IMG/VR virus record: IMGVR_UViG_2541047683_000004
Coordinates: 1 to 42,486 of that record
Source of the DNA: a virus
Taxonomy: Duplodnaviria > Heunggongvirae > Uroviricota > Caudoviricetes
Reading direction: 5' to 3' (one strand)
DNA: 42,486 bases
Positions 9,240 through 29,791 of the stretch are shown here, piece by piece. Numbering within the stretch: the stretch's first letter is position 1; each line of letters starts with the position of its first letter. The notes under the pieces were generated by a model, which saw only the letters and a list, made by a program, of their open reading frames with translations, searched no databases and was not told the DNA's origin. The position numbers and the translations under genes are program-made.

Positions 9240-9251
9240 GTGACATGTCAC
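9240..9251. repeat. Perfect 12-bp palindrome GTGACATGTCAC (copy 1 of 3)
   Basis: Exact palindrome between convergent genes. Confidence 0.6.
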
Positions 9252-9288
9252 GATAGTTTCGTTTTGCACATCCCTGTGCCGCCGCCCG

Positions 9289-9939
9289 TCAGAAGAACCC
9301 TGCCTTGTCGTTGATGTACTCCGCGTGGGTCTGGATATCACGCAGGCATTTACTCACACCGACGATGTAGCAGAACATGGTGGTCAGCTCCGCCGCCGCG
9401 CCCGATACATCGTGCCCGTCTTCCTGTAACTGGTTCAGCAGATTCATCAGCAGTGAGTTTTCCGTCAGGCCGAGAACACCAGACGGAGAATGAATCAGAC
9501 TGCGGTAGCCGGGCTTCAATGGGGCACTGTATTCTTTTTTGTCTTCCAGCTTGATCGCCTCCATAATGGCGGGCATGAAGCCTGACAAGACCTTCTCCAC
9601 TTTTGTTTCTTGTTGTCTTAAACGTTTCTCGCATTCAATGAAGTAGCGTCGTACCTGACGACCTTTTTCGTTACGCTCGACCATCGCCAGCTCTTTGGCT
9701 GTATCGAGGGTTAGGTGGTAGTCTTTTGCAGGACGGCCTCTGCCTATTTTTTCCCGAACTTGGGAAATAATCATAAAGTCTTGATTTTCAACGAAGCCAT
9801 ATTCAGCAATTCGTTCGACAATCCACGAAGCAAATCGCTTACCCACATCGAGGAAAGTGTGTAAATCACGGGCATTAACGAGAAGAGCGGTTTCGTTGGA
9901 TATAGTGCCGTTGAATACGGGGATGAGTTGAGCGTTCAT
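9289..9939 (-). CDS. Antirepressor-like protein, AntA/Rha-type N-terminal domain plus shared C-terminal module
   Basis: N-terminal LIPVFNGTISNETALLVNARDLHTFLDVGKRFASWIVERIAEYGFVENQDF resembles AntA-type domain; C-terminal 80 aa matches gene 7420-8115; GGAG RBS. Confidence 0.65.
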   Translation of the reverse strand: MNAQLIPVFNGTISNETALLVNARDLHTFLDVGKRFASWIVERIAEYGFVENQDFMIISQVREKIGRGRPAKDYHLTLDTAKELAMVERNEKGRQVRRYFIECEKRLRQQETKVEKVLSGFMPAIMEAIKLEDKKEYSAPLKPGYRSLIHSPSGVLGLTENSLLMNLLNQLQEDGHDVSGAAAELTTMFCYIVGVSKCLRDIQTHAEYINDKAGFF

Positions 9940-10095
9940 GATGGCGTCTCCACTTAGCGAATTACATCACCACCGCTGAGACCAATCAGATGGTGGTGAA
10001 CTGAACGGAGTTGGTCTTACCGGCCTAAGTGGTACCGGCGTCCTTTCGGACCCCCATTCAGCCCACCATAATTCTGGCATGACTGTGCTATACGC

Positions 10096-10174
10096 ATAAA
10101 AAAACCACGTCTGGCGTGGTATGCGCCACTTAGTAATCCGGGAGACCAATCCCGGCACTGGATTTTGCCAGTGC
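10096..10174 (-). ncRNA. Candidate small structured RNA in antirepressor leader B (inverted paralog of 7187-7262)
   Basis: Same hairpin-hairpin-terminator architecture; terminator stem differs in sequence but preserves pairing (ccacg-ccaga-cgtgg). Confidence 0.4.
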
Positions 10175-10209
10175 CTGATTACTATGGCACAAGAGGAATG
10201 CGATGTAAA

Positions 10210-10226
10210 TTTACCGCAAAGGTAAT
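10210..10226. promoter_or_regulatory. Operator-like palindrome (copy 5)
   Basis: tttaccgcaaaggtaat, inverted counterpart of copy 3. Confidence 0.55.
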
Positions 10227-10372
10227 GATAGACACAGACAAACATTAAAATCAACCATATTTGGTTAATGCGTGTAAAAGAGCCAGCAGCGAGAAATTGT
10301 GCCGCGACGTAAAATAACGAGCATCTGCTGGCTTACAACCAGCGATGTTTCAAATTTGTCACTACTATCAAC

Positions 10373-10771
10373 GTGCCATTCCACGGCGCAGAGCTTTATG
10401 TTGTCAATCACAACGGCGAACCGTATACCCCAATGAAACCTATCGTTGAGGGAATGGGGCTAGACTGGAAATCTCAACATAAGAAGATTTCTCAACGCTT
10501 CTCGAAGGGTATGGTGGAAATCACCATACCTTCTGCCGGTGGGGTGCAAGCCATGATTTGTATGGCTTTACGAAAATTGGCAGCTTGGTTGAACAGCATC
10601 AGCCCTAACAAAGTCCGCCCTGAAATCCGCGACAAGGTAATCCAGTATCAGGAAGAGTGTGACGATGTGCTCTACGAGTACTGGACTAAAGGCCATGTGG
10701 TTAACCCACGCAAAGCTAAAAAGGCGTTGCCGGGTAAAATCACTACTGAGCAACAGGAGGTATACACTTAA
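10373..10771 (+). CDS. Antirepressor N-terminal-domain-like protein, start codon unclear (possibly truncated remnant)
   Basis: Segment LYVVNHNGEPYTPMKPIVEGMGLDWKSQ resembles P22-antirepressor-type N-domain by recollection; only GTG or internal ATG starts, no good RBS. Confidence 0.35.
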   Translation: MPFHGAELYVVNHNGEPYTPMKPIVEGMGLDWKSQHKKISQRFSKGMVEITIPSAGGVQAMICMALRKLAAWLNSISPNKVRPEIRDKVIQYQEECDDVLYEYWTKGHVVNPRKAKKALPGKITTEQQEVYT

Positions 10772-27340: not shown

Positions 27341-27343
27341 AAA

Positions 27344-27370
27344 CAGCCAGCCTATGAGCTGGCTTTGTTT
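27344..27370 (+). terminator. Intrinsic terminator (possibly bidirectional)
   Basis: cagccagc-ctatga-gctggctt followed by T-rich tract. Confidence 0.5.
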
Positions 27371-27414
27371 TATCCTCACCAGAGGATATCAACGACATTA
27401 TCCCCACCAGCGGA

Positions 27415-28890
27415 TTAAGCATAGGGATCGTAATCTGTAATGGCCTTGCCTTGCTGGTTCTGCTGCCCGGGAATTCGCAGACGCTTCGACACAGGGAACG
27501 CAAACGTCAGCAGTAGCGCATCGCCTTTACCAGGAGAACGCCCAAGTCGCTCTTTGATATCTTCCTTCGGTTCGATAACGATTTTACCGTCCACGCGAAC
27601 TTTGTACTCTGCCGTCGACAGGTCGTCCGCTGTTTCCTGGTCATCCAGCATGCCGCCGAGCCTCAGCCATGTCTTGCATGAGTTGAACATCTCCCCACGC
27701 TTGTTGAGCATCTGCGGGTCAGTAGACGCGCCACCGAACGGAACAAGTTGCCATGTACGACCCCAGCCGTCACCGATTGACTTCAAACCGGTTCCGTAAC
27801 CGAAGTCGATGAACACCGCGTCAGCCTGATACTGGTCTTCAAAGTCAGCGATACGCTTCGCCATAATCAGATCGTCGGTAGTCTTGTTGCCAGTCCACAG
27901 CACCTTACTGTGTAGCCCCTGCCGCAGGTATATCACAGCGTCATCAACGCCGGAGTATGCCGGGTCAACGCCGATTATCACCGGAGCATGCGCCACCTGC
28001 GCAGCGGTTACCACCCGTTTCATTGCCTCATCAGTAAGACCGGTAGGGATAAACTGCAATTCAGATGCATCAGGGAATATGCCGCGCACACGGATTTTAA
28101 CGAAGTCGCTGTCTTCCCCGTAGTCATCAACCCATTTCTGCAACTGCTGTTTGTTAGTGCCTTCCACCGTCCGGCTGTCAATCTGCGCAGTTTTCCAGCG
28201 GTGTTTATATTTGCGGAAACATTCACGGAATCGCCCGGTATTACGCGTCGGGTTTCCGAACGCCACCCAGATAATCTCAGTGTCTTCGTCAGTTAGCGCA
28301 CCTTCGGCAACTTCCCACACCAGATCCGCAATGTTCGACGCTTCATCGAATACCACGATGATGCGTTTGCGCTCGTTGTGTAGTCCGGCGAATGCCTCAG
28401 TGTTGTGCTCAGACCAGGGGATTGCGTCAGCTCGCCACCGCTTGTCGTGCCCAGGATCATTGCTGTACATCGCGGTAGCGGTACAGGTAAACCAGTCTTT
28501 CGTGATAGCAAGGTTCGACCACTTGATAATTTCCGGCCAGGTCTTCGTTCGTAGCTGGTTGTCGGTGTTGGCGGTCACCACGACCTTACAATCCTCGCAA
28601 GTGGACATGCCCCAGTTGATCAGCATTGAGATGAATGCGGATTTACCAATACCGTGACCAGAAGCACGTGCCAGCATAAGCGGCTGATATTGCGTCTCTG
28701 GATTCTGCAGGTGATCACGTATCTCTCGGAACGCATCGGCCTGCCACTGACGTGGACCGGTGGCATGTGCCAGTTCAGTACCCTCTTCCCCCCACGGGAA
28801 CGCATAGAGGGCATAGCCAAGCGGATCGTGAGTGAACCCTGCAATATCCTCGATCAACTGCTCTTCAGGAGATAACGCTGTATCTGTCAC
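27415..28890 (-). CDS. Terminase large subunit
   Basis: 491 aa; Walker A-like RASGHGIGKSAF; position after small subunit. Confidence 0.8.
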   Translation of the reverse strand: MTDTALSPEEQLIEDIAGFTHDPLGYALYAFPWGEEGTELAHATGPRQWQADAFREIRDHLQNPETQYQPLMLARASGHGIGKSAFISMLINWGMSTCEDCKVVVTANTDNQLRTKTWPEIIKWSNLAITKDWFTCTATAMYSNDPGHDKRWRADAIPWSEHNTEAFAGLHNERKRIIVVFDEASNIADLVWEVAEGALTDEDTEIIWVAFGNPTRNTGRFRECFRKYKHRWKTAQIDSRTVEGTNKQQLQKWVDDYGEDSDFVKIRVRGIFPDASELQFIPTGLTDEAMKRVVTAAQVAHAPVIIGVDPAYSGVDDAVIYLRQGLHSKVLWTGNKTTDDLIMAKRIADFEDQYQADAVFIDFGYGTGLKSIGDGWGRTWQLVPFGGASTDPQMLNKRGEMFNSCKTWLRLGGMLDDQETADDLSTAEYKVRVDGKIVIEPKEDIKERLGRSPGKGDALLLTFAFPVSKRLRIPGQQNQQGKAITDYDPYA

Positions 28891-29483
28891 TGATTACCAT
28901 CCTGACGTTCTTTGAGTCGCTTCCTGGCTGCCGCTATGCGATCAGCAATTGTCACATTCACATTAACATCCAGGCGTTCTTTGAACGCGTTGACGTCGAC
29001 GTGCTTACCAATCAGTTCGAGGTTCTTCACCTTGTCAGGCCATTTAATTTTTTTGAGGATTGTCTCTATCGAATCCTCGTTCATGTTCATGATGGTCGAT
29101 GACAGATCAAAGCCACTAAGCGTAGTGCGCCAGATTTTCGGCCACTCGCGGATTGGCTTAAGGCTCCCATCGTCGTTGAGGATGTCGATCACGTCCATCT
29201 GGTCGATCTCCACCAGGCGCATGAGAACGTAATCAGCACTGACGCGCATTCGTTTGTTGCGCTCCTCCATCAACTCGGCAATCCGTTTTTGAATGCGTTC
29301 ATCGCGCATCATGACACTGGCTTTAACTGCCGCTGTATTTGGGGAGAATCCTGCGTTAATCGCTGCCTGAGTCTGGTTTTCAGGCGTTTTGATGTATGAC
29401 TGGCAATAAGCCTCCTGCATTGCTGTGAGCGGCTTAAATTGCGTTGATTTGCGTTTATAGGTTTTAGGTTCAGCAGGCATCAT
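28887..29483 (-). CDS. Terminase small subunit
   Basis: Start moved to internal ATG 29483; helix-turn-helix-like N-terminus; overlaps large subunit start. Confidence 0.6.
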   Translation of the reverse strand: MMPAEPKTYKRKSTQFKPLTAMQEAYCQSYIKTPENQTQAAINAGFSPNTAAVKASVMMRDERIQKRIAELMEERNKRMRVSADYVLMRLVEIDQMDVIDILNDDGSLKPIREWPKIWRTTLSGFDLSSTIMNMNEDSIETILKKIKWPDKVKNLELIGKHVDVNAFKERLDVNVNVTIADRIAAARKRLKERQDGNQ

Positions 29484-29557
29484 AACCACCGTGGTAATAG
29501 TTACCGTTGTGGTAATAGTACCATGCAAAATAAAGCCGCCATAGTTGGCGGCAGTAT

Positions 29558-29770
29558 TCAAAGTCCATCAAATTCATCGTAAAAACTCTCGTCAAGATAC
29601 CCTTCCCATTTACCGCGAATGAAAATTACATCCTCGCCGCAAGGGTGCTGACTGTCGATAACTATATCCCTCCTGGCGCAACCATACTTATGCATGAGAA
29701 ATTTAACCTCTTTCGGAAAATTTGCTGAGTTATCTCTCATATCTTCAAGGTCGTAGCGTATTTTTGGCAT
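29558..29770 (-). CDS. Small hypothetical protein (70 aa)
   Basis: ATG 29770 with AAGGTG RBS; palindrome copy 3 lies just upstream. Confidence 0.45.
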   Translation of the reverse strand: MPKIRYDLEDMRDNSANFPKEVKFLMHKYGCARRDIVIDSQHPCGEDVIFIRGKWEGYLDESFYDEFDGL

Positions 29771-29779
29771 AACACCTTC

Positions 29780-29791
29780 GTGACATGTCAC
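29780..29791. repeat. Perfect 12-bp palindrome GTGACATGTCAC (copy 3 of 3)
   Basis: Exact palindrome just upstream of RBS of gene 29558-29770. Confidence 0.6.

Follow-up and report, generated by a model that had tools for sequence, protein, structure and literature searches.

Three copies of a 12-bp palindrome, GTGACATGTCAC, in an epsilon15-like (Uetakevirus) prophage are likely bound by a small protein that the phage itself encodes, a predicted ribbon-helix-helix (RHH) protein ending in a four-cysteine (Cys4) module. This assignment is read from sequence: the gene of this protein, which belongs to the epsilon15 gp49/N15 gp46 family, and the site are paired and co-vary across many otherwise unrelated temperate phages. 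On balance, we also favour the view that the three palindromes are the cognate operators through which the protein acts as a regulator. The prophage occupies the window, by which we mean the whole stretch of 42,486 nt that was analysed (IMG/VR record IMGVR_UViG_2541047683_000004). The original prediction had proposed a second phage regulator or, alternatively, a link with the orphan methyltransferase; the regulator now has a candidate gene, with a conserved and co-varying pairing, and the methyltransferase link is not supported.

The outcome is a protein-operator pair open to direct testing: a 112-aa protein, its 12-bp site and naturally occurring variants in specificity. Although epsilon15-like and N15-like phages serve as model temperate phages, the gp49/gp46-family protein is barely annotated: it is recorded as 'hypothetical' or as a generic 'transcriptional regulator', and a literature search on N15 gp46 and SPC32H returned nothing about it. 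We found no earlier description of the gene-plus-site pairing. The sites are unannotated in the phage records examined, including the richly annotated epsilon15 record, and the 12-mer had no match in the literature searched (the epsilon15 genome paper lay outside that search).

The palindrome and its surroundings in the prophage

The palindrome occurs in the window exactly where it was first reported (Table 1) and nowhere else, with a mean of 0.01 copies in dinucleotide-preserving shuffles and at least three copies in 0 of 100 shuffles. Uetakevirus relatives carry it at the same three places. A chance origin is ruled out by the shuffles, by the carrier genomes described below and by control DNA, as GTGAC-N2-GTCAC is absent from 190 kb comprising 100 kb of the E. 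coli K-12 chromosome, lambda and P22. The zero count in the K-12 portion also gives no support to the concern that the motif might be common in the host chromosome. The sole one-mismatch copy, GTGCCATGTCAC at 24365, was not accepted as a site: it is part of a coding region, differs in a relative and appears to be a chance match.

Table 1. Positions of the palindromes, the adjoining hairpins and the associated genes in the window
Feature	Position	Strand	Remarks
Palindrome copy B	9240..9251		Where the long structural/antirepressor unit (- strand) ends
Terminator hairpin	9222..9239	-	AGGCCGCTTTCGCGGCCT then TGTTTTTAA; abuts copy B
Palindrome copy A	27329..27340		Flanked by terL 27415-28890(-) and, convergent to it, the Tad2-like gene 27028-27324(+)
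Terminator hairpin	27345..27364	+	Followed by TTGTTTTAT; 4 nt from copy A
Intrinsic-terminator-like hairpin	29535..29552	-	GCCGCCAACTATGGCGGC then TTTATTTT; ends the early-right operon
Small ORF	29558..29770	-	70 aa, phrog_1541, function not assigned; directly downstream of copy C
Palindrome copy C	29780..29791		Overlaps the TGA stop of the regulator gene; 9 nt upstream of the ATG of 29558-29770
Putative site-binding protein gene	29788..30126	-	112 aa; epsilon15 gp49/N15 gp46 family, phrog_536

All three sites in the window lie ahead of terminators that end operons. As originally described, copies A and B are found between convergent genes beside terminator hairpins, and copy C just upstream of the small ORF. 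Copy B separates the convergent ORFs 8950-9216(+) and 9289-9939(-) and has homologues in TL-2011b, phiV10, epsilon15, SPN1S, phiv142-3 and BUCT711. Its neighbouring hairpin folds at -16.5 kcal/mol (z = -3.9); hairpin and palindrome are separable, since 10 nt lie between them in BUCT711. The homologue of copy A is found downstream of terL in phiV10, epsilon15, SPN1S and many IMG/VR loci, and the adjoining hairpin folds at -15.5 kcal/mol (z = -2.9). The flank aacacc, said to be shared by two copies, is real, but it is offset by 3 nt between them. In copy C, bases 29788-29790 are the TGA stop codon of the regulator gene, a feature that the original prediction overlooked. The small ORF downstream is an optional insert, missing in epsilon15 and TL-2011b. 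The hairpin that follows it, ahead of the real terS start, has a homologue annotated as a terminator in epsilon15; it lies 230 nt from copy C in the window, and the corresponding distance is 22-45 nt in relatives. The adjacency of sites and terminators may simply arise because non-coding DNA is confined to these short intergenic gaps.

These neighbourhoods would suit a palindrome that acts as RNA, either as part of the terminators or as a processing signal, given that copies A and B adjoin terminator hairpins and copy C lies upstream of one. We nevertheless regard such a role as extremely unlikely: the hairpin of the palindrome itself reaches about -3 kcal/mol, with z about 0 and no better than shuffled sequence, its stem is invariant and without co-variation, its distance from the adjoining hairpin ranges from 0 to 10 nt, and copies occur on either strand and within genes. 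Because sites occur in coding regions and the RNA hairpin is negligible, we read the element as DNA. For the same weak folding, and with true terminators present as separate adjoining hairpins, the palindrome was rejected as an intrinsic terminator.

Other known elements were also discarded. A CRP site would read TGTGA-N6-TCACA; the sequence reads TGTGA-N4-TCAC(G/A), and the half-site spacing of 4 rather than 6 upholds the earlier exclusion of CRP. The SopB/ParB centromere of N15-type prophages has another sequence, GTGCGACCACGGTCGCAC in the phiKO2 partition sites, and is located elsewhere, and the epsilon15-type repressor operators (ATTACC-N5-GGTAAT in the epsilon15 record) likewise differ in sequence and position.

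Pairing of gene and site across phages

Homologues of the window protein, down to about 26% identity, again have GTGAC-NN-GTCAC over their own stop codon, with one to five further copies per genome. This gene-site pair is found in myo-, sipho- and podoviruses of enterobacteria, Vibrio, Aeromonas and Pseudomonas. Every one of the 12 complete genomes encoding a homologue contains one to four GTGAC-N2-GTCAC sites, giving 33 in 500 kb where about 0.03 would be expected per genome. In these genomes the spacings N0, N1 and N3 to N7 produced 1 match altogether, and single GTGAC/GTCAC pentamers, taken without any constraint on pairing or spacing, number 58-96 per genome.

The linkage was tested on loci picked by protein alone. 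Among close relatives, 76 of 79 have the exact palindrome over the stop codon in the register G-TGA-C. Distant-clade loci have GTGAC-NN-GTCAC over the TGA in the same register in 9 cases out of 13, and 2 more have a site within the last 40 nt of the gene. These distant loci are about 50-60% identical to P0209 and about 30% to the window protein; loci beyond the relatives of 96-99% were retrieved with a 5-sequence alignment and single proteins. The site also covers the stop codon, in the same register, in N15 gp46 and phiKO2 gp45 (35-37% identity), at locus L214 and at most Pseudomonas-clade loci; it lies 2 nt past the stop of ZF40 gp22, and Paraglaciecola and Aeromonas genomes show the link as well. 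Among the homologues that have no stop-codon site are YenM_42.18, K303, L216, L217, L222 and L228, and in K303, L217, L222 and L228 a site is located 13-44 nt upstream of terS. Some other lineages have the site over the start codon of the regulator. Sites are also found within coding regions, namely repA of N15 and phiKO2 and the terL and portal genes of Pseudomonas phages; these are hard to reconcile with promoter control. An operator within its regulator's own stop codon, or start codon in some clades, is an unusual and deeply conserved layout, and the stop-codon arrangement suggests a regulatory cassette that keeps its site through mosaic recombination.

The sequence of the site shifts with the clade of the protein. 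Its centre is AT in every copy in Uetakeviruses and ZF40, and TG/CA in all three copies in N15 and in phiKO2, at homologous positions. Across the family AT gives way to TG, AG, GG, GC or other centres, the conserved part being the two GTGAC half-sites and their 2-bp gap. The Pseudomonas clade has an asymmetric site, GTGACGGGTAAC, with 3-6 copies in 20 kb (6 observed versus 0.0035 in shuffles) and often located at the start of the gene as well as at its stop.

This variation bears directly on the proposal that the palindrome is the target of a prophage orphan DNA methyltransferase or restriction-modification system. The palindrome does include CATG and ACATGT, and the gene content of Uetakeviruses includes adenine and cytosine methyltransferases. 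However, the CATG centre is lost in N15 and phiKO2 (TG) and in other clades, a target this long would not persist at three orthologous intergenic positions, and the partner gene is the gp49-family gene and not any methyltransferase. The proposal thus retains next to no probability.

Exchange of accessory genes, among them antirepressors and an anti-Thoeris Tad2-like gene, takes place at junctions that coincide with the sites, so that the identity of the binder bears on the insulation and timing of accessory cargo. Among relatives, homology ends exactly at the palindrome at all three positions: on one side the regulator gene or a terminator hairpin is retained, and on the other any of many unrelated sequences may be found (antirepressor variants, Tad2-like and other accessory genes). 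The differing convergent genes at site A even all finish with TAA-CRCC directly before the palindrome. A recombination or insertion hotspot at module boundaries, serving the gain of accessory genes and without regulatory function, would account for these junctions, but we consider it very improbable. No recombinase or nuclease co-occurs with the sites, which lie inside conserved coding sequence in other phages, and strict half-sites and spacing with clade-specific variants are the signature of a dimeric binding protein. Moreover, the mosaic pattern follows from an operator too, since a short operator shared by otherwise unrelated DNA becomes a junction for homologous recombination in RecET/Red phages.

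The candidate binder and its possible mode of action

The 112-aa protein is predicted to comprise a basic N-terminal helix, an RHH core and the Cys4 module at its C-terminal end. Its AlphaFold model (AF2, monomer, 63-sequence alignment) is confident and resembles RHH DNA-binding proteins; the beta-alpha-alpha core fold is present in the model, which places the protein in the RHH fold class. Searches with the protein found no Pfam or NCBIfam match even at E <= 10, no match in a PDB sequence search and none in PADLOC. The BFVD structure search returned a single match, a fragment of the gp49/gp46 family itself. A 12-bp motif of two half-sites is compatible with an RHH dimer on a short symmetric operator.

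From these elements, we infer that the protein actually binds the sites, how many subunits take part, and which genes it regulates in which direction, as follows. The protein would bind as an RHH dimer and read symmetrically the two GTGAC half-sites across their constant 2-bp gap, probably by means of the RHH beta-ribbon together with the basic helix conserved at the N-terminus, leaving the Cys4 module available to oligomerise or to fold in a metal-dependent way. As the regulator's stop codon contains an operator, gene and site would be inherited as a single cassette, and fresh protein could act immediately on the downstream sequence.

In the window, each putative operator stands where a transcription unit ends: one at the end of the early-right operon, ahead of the small ORF and terS, one after terS-terL and one after the structural/antirepressor unit. 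The effect of the sites on transcription may then be that of a roadblock-type repressor or insulator, the mechanism that we prefer. Bound protein would exert negative feedback on early-operon read-through into the late and packaging genes. It would also protect terL and the late operon against transcription running in from the convergent accessory ('moron') genes. A repressor or roadblock is favoured over an activator because sites occur at operon-end terminators, upstream of terS and over a start codon. In N15, the antirepressor operon has a promoter-like element, and the centre of the intergenic site falls about 66 bp upstream of the start that this element would give, a position compatible with activation.

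Relation to MatP and other known systems

The phage motif equals the E. coli matS consensus (GTGACATTGTCAC, 13-bp GTGAC-RNY-GTCAC; PMC3603311, PMC8669397) minus one central base, and this near-identity raises the question of cross-talk with host chromosome organisation. Both systems have GTGAC half-sites, few dispersed sites and an RHH-containing protein, and the MatP-matS structure (3vea) is among the best structural matches to our model, with a likeness limited to the RHH part. They differ in the length of the site (12 bp versus 13 bp) and in protein architecture, as MatP has a four-helix bundle, RHH and coiled-coil where the phage model shows a single helix at its N-terminus and the Cys4 module at its C-terminus; unlike MatP, the gp49 family is phage-encoded and reaches Pseudomonas phages. 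The 2-bp spacer is found in all window copies and in 33 of 34 carrier-genome sites, the only N3 (13-bp) site being in Vibrio phage K303. HHalign of the family profile gave probabilities of homology with MatP of 0.1% and 0.4% (two profiles), the search for MatP homologues having yielded only about 99%-identical sequences and therefore no diverse MatP profile; the Pfam MatP model (PF06303/PF17414) did not match the phage protein.

The same protein might bind these sites for another job, as a DNA-organising or bridging factor analogous to MatP/matS or to RHH centromere-binding proteins, drawing 3-6 dispersed sites together in a nucleoprotein structure that would serve packaging, replication or segregation. 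We regard this as unlikely, though worth keeping in mind: besides the low alignment scores, the model lacks the four-helix bundle and coiled-coil, the N15 sites are far from cos and distinct from the SopB centromeres, and integrating phages do not need partition. It is doubtful, too, that the family is a viral MatP counterpart in the full sense, a minimal RHH protein on 'matS minus one base' sites that is not a classical transcription factor. If this were true, the dispersed copies would fold or bridge the phage chromosome, or disturb host MatP/MukBEF-dependent DNA handling, and the phage would encode a chromosome-organising system with a self-contained gene-plus-site cassette.

Host MatP itself could be imagined as the binder, the closeness of sites and gp49-family gene being mere linkage. 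The half-sites are identical to those of matS, and the lineage in which MatP is present takes in most of the hosts (Enterobacterales, Vibrio, Aeromonas, Alteromonadales). However, 12 genomes hold one N3 site against 33 twelve-bp sites, phages that share E. coli as host have different variants (AT in the Uetakeviruses, TG in N15), and the gene-site pair is also found in phages of Pseudomonas, which is not known to have MatP. Prophages are moreover reported to avoid matS (PMC3603311). Altogether, binding by the host protein appears highly improbable.

As a phage-encoded regulator, the gp49-family protein can be compared with Arc and Mnt of P22. These two small RHH proteins repress the immI/antirepressor region and, as dimers or tetramers, recognise short symmetric operators. 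A similar control of accessory and antirepressor genes is conceivable here, as one window site and the N15/phiKO2 intergenic site adjoin antirepressor genes. The gp49 family shows no sequence similarity to Arc or Mnt, has in addition the basic N-terminal helix and the Cys4 module, and has operators dispersed over the genome, one within its own stop codon, whereas those of Arc and Mnt are clustered at one promoter. The KorA/KorB-type regulators of IncP plasmids coordinate several operons through identical, scattered 12-13-bp palindromic operators, and thus also pair one small regulator with a handful of palindromes on a mobile genome. Their folds are HTH and ParB-like and their operators lie at promoters, unlike the gp49-family sites, which lie at operon ends, over stop or start codons and inside genes. 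Finally, RHH antitoxins and auto-repressors (MazE, TacA/KacA, ParD, CopG, FitA) differ in that no toxin partner is evident for the gp49 family, and in the placement of the operator: that of an RHH antitoxin is in its own promoter, and that of the gp49 family is at the 3' end of the gene, over the stop codon, with distant copies elsewhere.

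Copies of the palindrome in the window and in its relatives

The palindrome GTGACATGTCAC is present in three exact copies in the whole window (sites A, B and C in the table), whereas dinucleotide-preserving shuffles contain a mean of 0.01 copies and never three. The positions given in the original prediction are thus correct, and the sequence context it described for the three copies (convergent ORFs, terminator hairpins and a small ORF) was borne out. What had been overlooked is that the stop codon of the regulator gene, which encodes a protein of the epsilon15 gp49/N15 gp46 family, is embedded in site C. 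When up to two mismatches were allowed, the only additional match in the window was GTGCCATGTCAC; it falls within a coding sequence, is altered in a close relative, and was taken as a chance occurrence.

Positions of the palindrome copies and neighbouring features in the window
Feature	Position (strand)	Context
Site B	9240-9251	72-bp gap between convergent ORFs; end of the structural/antirepressor unit, followed by the terminator
ORF	8950-9216(+)	Convergent with the antirepressor ORF
Terminator hairpin	9239-9222	Directly adjoins site B
AntA-type antirepressor ORF	9289-9939(-)	
Near-match GTGCCATGTCAC	24365	Coding sequence
tRNA-Arg (anticodon TCT)	26753-26829(+)	In the variable region that separates terL from the portal gene
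Tad2-like gene	27028-27324(+)	Convergent with terL; Pfam PF11195, Thoeris anti-defence 2 (E = 1.9e-24)
Site A	27329-27340	Between the Tad2-like gene and terL; end of terS-terL, adjoining a bidirectional terminator that faces the Tad2-like gene
Terminator hairpin	27345-27364	4 nt from site A
terL	27415-28890(-)	
Long "terS" ORF	28887-29561	TTG start, as annotated in phiV10
Terminator	29552-29535	End of the early-right operon; order: gp49-like gene, site C, small ORF, terminator, then terS
Terminator-like hairpin	29535-29561(-)	Same hairpin as in the preceding row, falling within the 5' region of the long "terS" ORF
Small ORF	29558-29770(-)	ATG 9 nt downstream of site C
Site C	29780-29791	Contains the regulator stop codon
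Regulator gene	29788-30126(-)	112 aa; TGA at 29788-29790

The window prophage is an epsilon15-like podovirus of the genus Uetakevirus, with its late genes on the minus strand, and its nearest relatives are phiV10, TL-2011b and phiv142-3. The identical 12-mer was found in every relative examined, including the Salmonella phages epsilon15 and SPN1S and the Klebsiella phage BUCT711, in which it is still kept at a DNA identity of only about 80%. The positions are homologous: site A immediately past terL, site B where the long structural operon ends, and site C over the stop of the gene that comes last in the early-right operon (epsilon15 gp49, phiV10 p55). Copy C of phiV10, which is split by the record ends, has one mismatch. 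Among close relatives picked by protein similarity, the palindrome over the stop codon is exact in 76 of 79 and carries one mismatch in 3 of 79. At all three places the homology between relatives stops exactly at the palindrome, one flank (gp49-like gene or terminator hairpin) being kept and the other being any of many unrelated sequences. The palindrome is unannotated in the richly annotated epsilon15 record, in which repressor operators (ATTACC-N5-GGTAAT), IHF sites, RNase III sites and terminators are all indicated.

Several features of the surrounding regions were also noted. The slot of the Tad2-like gene holds unrelated genes in relatives, and a tRNA-Arg is annotated in them at the same place as in the window. 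At site A, unrelated convergent accessory genes all finish in TAA, with C(A/G)CC between this stop and the palindrome, in the window (27318-27328) and at the homologous positions of L002, L003, L011, L045, L071, L094, L102 and L116. The 8-mer GGTGTTAT (minus strand) is also found after site C with a 3-nt shift, where it serves as RBS and start for the small ORF. Finally, since a terminator-like hairpin lies in the 5' end of the long "terS" ORF, the true terS start is probably further downstream, as in the TL-2011b and epsilon15 annotations.

Association of the site with the gp49 family

Scanning IMG/VR with the 14-mer TGTGACATGTCACG, we found the palindrome over gp49-like stop codons down to 46% protein identity, including in phages whose neighbouring genes differ. 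Homologues were identified by tblastn in the Pectobacterium myovirus ZF40 (67% identity), in P2-like Yersinia phages, in the linear plasmid prophages N15 (gp46) and phiKO2 (gp45) (35-37%) and in Vibrio and Aeromonas phages (about 30%). The identical palindrome occurs three times in the ZF40 genome, once at 2 nt past the homologue's stop codon. In N15 and phiKO2, the TGA of the homologue lies within GTGACTGGTCAC, in the same register as in the window, and this sequence or its reverse complement is present three times per genome at homologous positions: at the gp46/45 stop, within repA and ahead of the antirepressor operon. They are distinct from the SopB partition sites, whose sequence is GTGCGACCACGGTCGCAC.

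In a more distant clade of 13 loci (about 30% identity to the window protein), GTGAC-NN-GTCAC covers the gene's own TGA in the same register in nine loci and falls in the final 40 nt of the gene in two; the two loci with no site at the gene end nonetheless carry 2-3 sites elsewhere. Of two distant homologues, P0209 has GTGACAGGTCAC over its stop codon, and in P0237 the same sequence forms the first four codons and also overlaps the stop of the upstream gene. Loci from Paraglaciecola and Aeromonas genomes display the same gene-site pattern. No site was found at the homologue's stop codon in YenM_42.18, K303 (a Vibrio phage), L216 and L217, which all carry a homologue. As a separate observation, CTATCGT recurs 40-100 nt downstream of the regulator gene in L214, L219, L224 and L238 of the distant clade, and may be part of a late promoter or the site of another factor.

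The Pseudomonas clade (P. putida group and P. aeruginosa, 26% identity) has an asymmetric variant, GTGACGGGTAAC, over the stop codon. It occurs, in this form or as its reverse complement, 3-6 times per 20 kb in these loci, with six copies in L251 versus 0.0035 expected. The sites often bracket the regulator gene at its start and stop, and conserved copies lie within terL and where the portal gene ends. In L251 (2450-15968), L252 and L254, the sites around the regulator gene share one orientation (GTGACGGGTAAC) and those of terL and the portal 3' end have the opposite one (GTTACCCGTCAC), so that the terS region is flanked by both.

The 12 complete homologue-encoding genomes all contain GTGAC-N2-GTCAC, at 1-4 copies per genome (33 sites in 500 kb), whereas half-site frequencies predict about 0.03 per genome; the other spacings searched, 0, 1 and 3-7 bp, together gave a single occurrence. 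No N2 site was found in 190 kb comprising lambda and P22, where tblastn detected no homologue at E <= 1, and two 50-kb stretches of E. coli K-12 chromosomal DNA. This control thus speaks against host-wide occurrence of the motif at similar density, the outcome that the original prediction had named as refuting its proposal. We also observed that the 11-bp version GTGAC-N1-GTCAC is over-represented in some genomes (about 0.03 expected per genome): lambda at 9747 and 19010, within genes G and lom; L217 at 13222 and 16056, both intergenic and one 44 nt upstream of terS; three sites in L239, three in L245 and two in L225. These may reflect a second specificity or a paralogous reader.

The site changes together with the protein clade. 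Uetakeviruses and ZF40 have AT at its centre, N15 and phiKO2 have TG, the marine/Aeromonas clade is mixed, and Pseudomonas phages have one altered half-site. That the Uetakevirus and N15 groups of E. coli phages have unlike variants, together with the Pseudomonas cases, argues that the site would be read by a phage-encoded and not a host-encoded protein. The proposal of a site for a second phage regulator is therefore supported, the sites being linked to the gp49-family protein and varying with it, and we consider it highly probable that the palindromes are binding sites of this protein.

The alternative first proposed, a recognition element connected with the methyltransferase, or a restriction target, appears unlikely from the sequences, since the central CATG/ACATGT is not a constant of the family and each genome has many single GTGAC pentamers (58-96). 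An RNA element was rejected as well: the fold is about -3 kcal/mol, equalled by shuffled sequence; the "stem" is invariant, with no co-variation; copies are found on both strands, some within genes; and the gap separating them from the adjacent terminator hairpin ranges between 0 and 10 nt.

The candidate binding protein

The 112-aa product belongs to phrog_536, whose name, "transcriptional regulator", is as far as can be told without experimental basis, and it has no match in Pfam, NCBIfam, PADLOC or PDB sequences. The family is small: 1.84 billion proteins yielded 209 representatives at 50% identity. Its alignments display a basic N-terminal segment, AERKxxQRxR, with near-invariant Arg8 and Arg13, conserved core residues (Leu36, Glu54 and Leu59-Ile-Arg) and a C-terminal C-x2-C ... 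C ... C module in which Cys79 and Cys82 are invariant and Cys99 near-invariant. The AF2 model obtained with 63 diverse aligned sequences is confident (pLDDT 93.2, pTM 0.70), with helices at 5-19, 30-42, 52-74 and 100-108, and supersedes a shallow-alignment model of pLDDT 60.

The 12-mer appears in no paper of the literature searched, an earlier mention in the epsilon15 genome paper being possible, and this search yielded nothing on the function of N15 gp46 or epsilon15 gp49. A small ribbon-helix-helix (RHH) regulator with palindromic operators is a well-known kind of system. What appears to be new is the family itself, combining RHH and Cys4 modules; its putative operator GTGAC-N2-GTCAC with clade-specific variants; its breadth over podo-, myo- and siphoviruses and plasmid prophages in several gamma-proteobacterial orders; and the deeply conserved embedding of the putative operator in the regulator's own stop codon.

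Possible role and comparison with known systems

All three window sites lie at transcription-unit ends. In other lineages, the site precedes the small terminase gene by 13-44 nt (K303, L222, L228 and L217) or overlaps the regulator's own start codon. With no room for a downstream promoter, these are typical positions for a repressor or a roadblock, and they lead us to favour, tentatively and with considerable doubt as to mechanism, an auto-regulatory roadblock or insulator. The bound protein would curb transcription running on from the early operon into the packaging and late genes, and would shield essential genes against convergent accessory-gene transcription. Taken as a single statement, binding and mechanism together seem moderately probable.

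The N15 intergenic site counts against a roadblock: the antirepressor operon has a promoter-like element, and this site is centred about 66 bp ahead of the start that the element would give, a position that would suit an activator. In N15 (28496-28561(-)), this site is 24 bp upstream of the -35 of the promoter-like TTGACG-18-TAGAGT, which reads into the immA (antirepressor) terminator, and a weaker TATAAA element, read by eye, lies just upstream of the site, placing it within the antirepressor operon promoter region. The adjacency to terminators may reflect the mere scarcity of non-coding DNA. Sites within the repA, terL and portal genes fit simple promoter control poorly. The main rival to the roadblock is that the same protein binds the palindromes in a DNA-organising or bridging role.

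In site sequence, the nearest known system is MatP/matS. The E. coli consensus matS is GTGACATTGTCAC (PMC8669397), with the pattern GTGAC[AG]N[TC]GTCAC (PMC3603311), and the phage palindrome corresponds to matS less one central base. MatP is likewise an RHH protein, among the best structural matches to our model, and the half-sites of the Photorhabdus matS variant, GTTAC/GTAAC (PMC8669397), bear the change that also marks one half-site of the Pseudomonas-phage variant. Membership of the MatP/matS system is nevertheless unsupported: the half-site spacing differs from matS, profile comparison revealed no similarity to MatP, the MatP Pfam model does not match the family, the family model has neither the four-helix bundle nor the coiled-coil of MatP, and the family is present in Pseudomonas phages. 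Binding of host MatP to these sites is unlikely. No matS was present in the 500 prophages surveyed by Bobay et al., who argued for counter-selection (PMC3603311), so that a conserved near-matS is of interest as regards MatP. K303 has, beside three 12-bp sites, a single 13-bp sequence of the matS pattern, GTGACACCGTCAC (19491-19503). In function, the nearest analogues are Arc and Mnt, the RHH repressors of P22, together with the RHH auto-repressors of toxin-antitoxin and plasmid systems.
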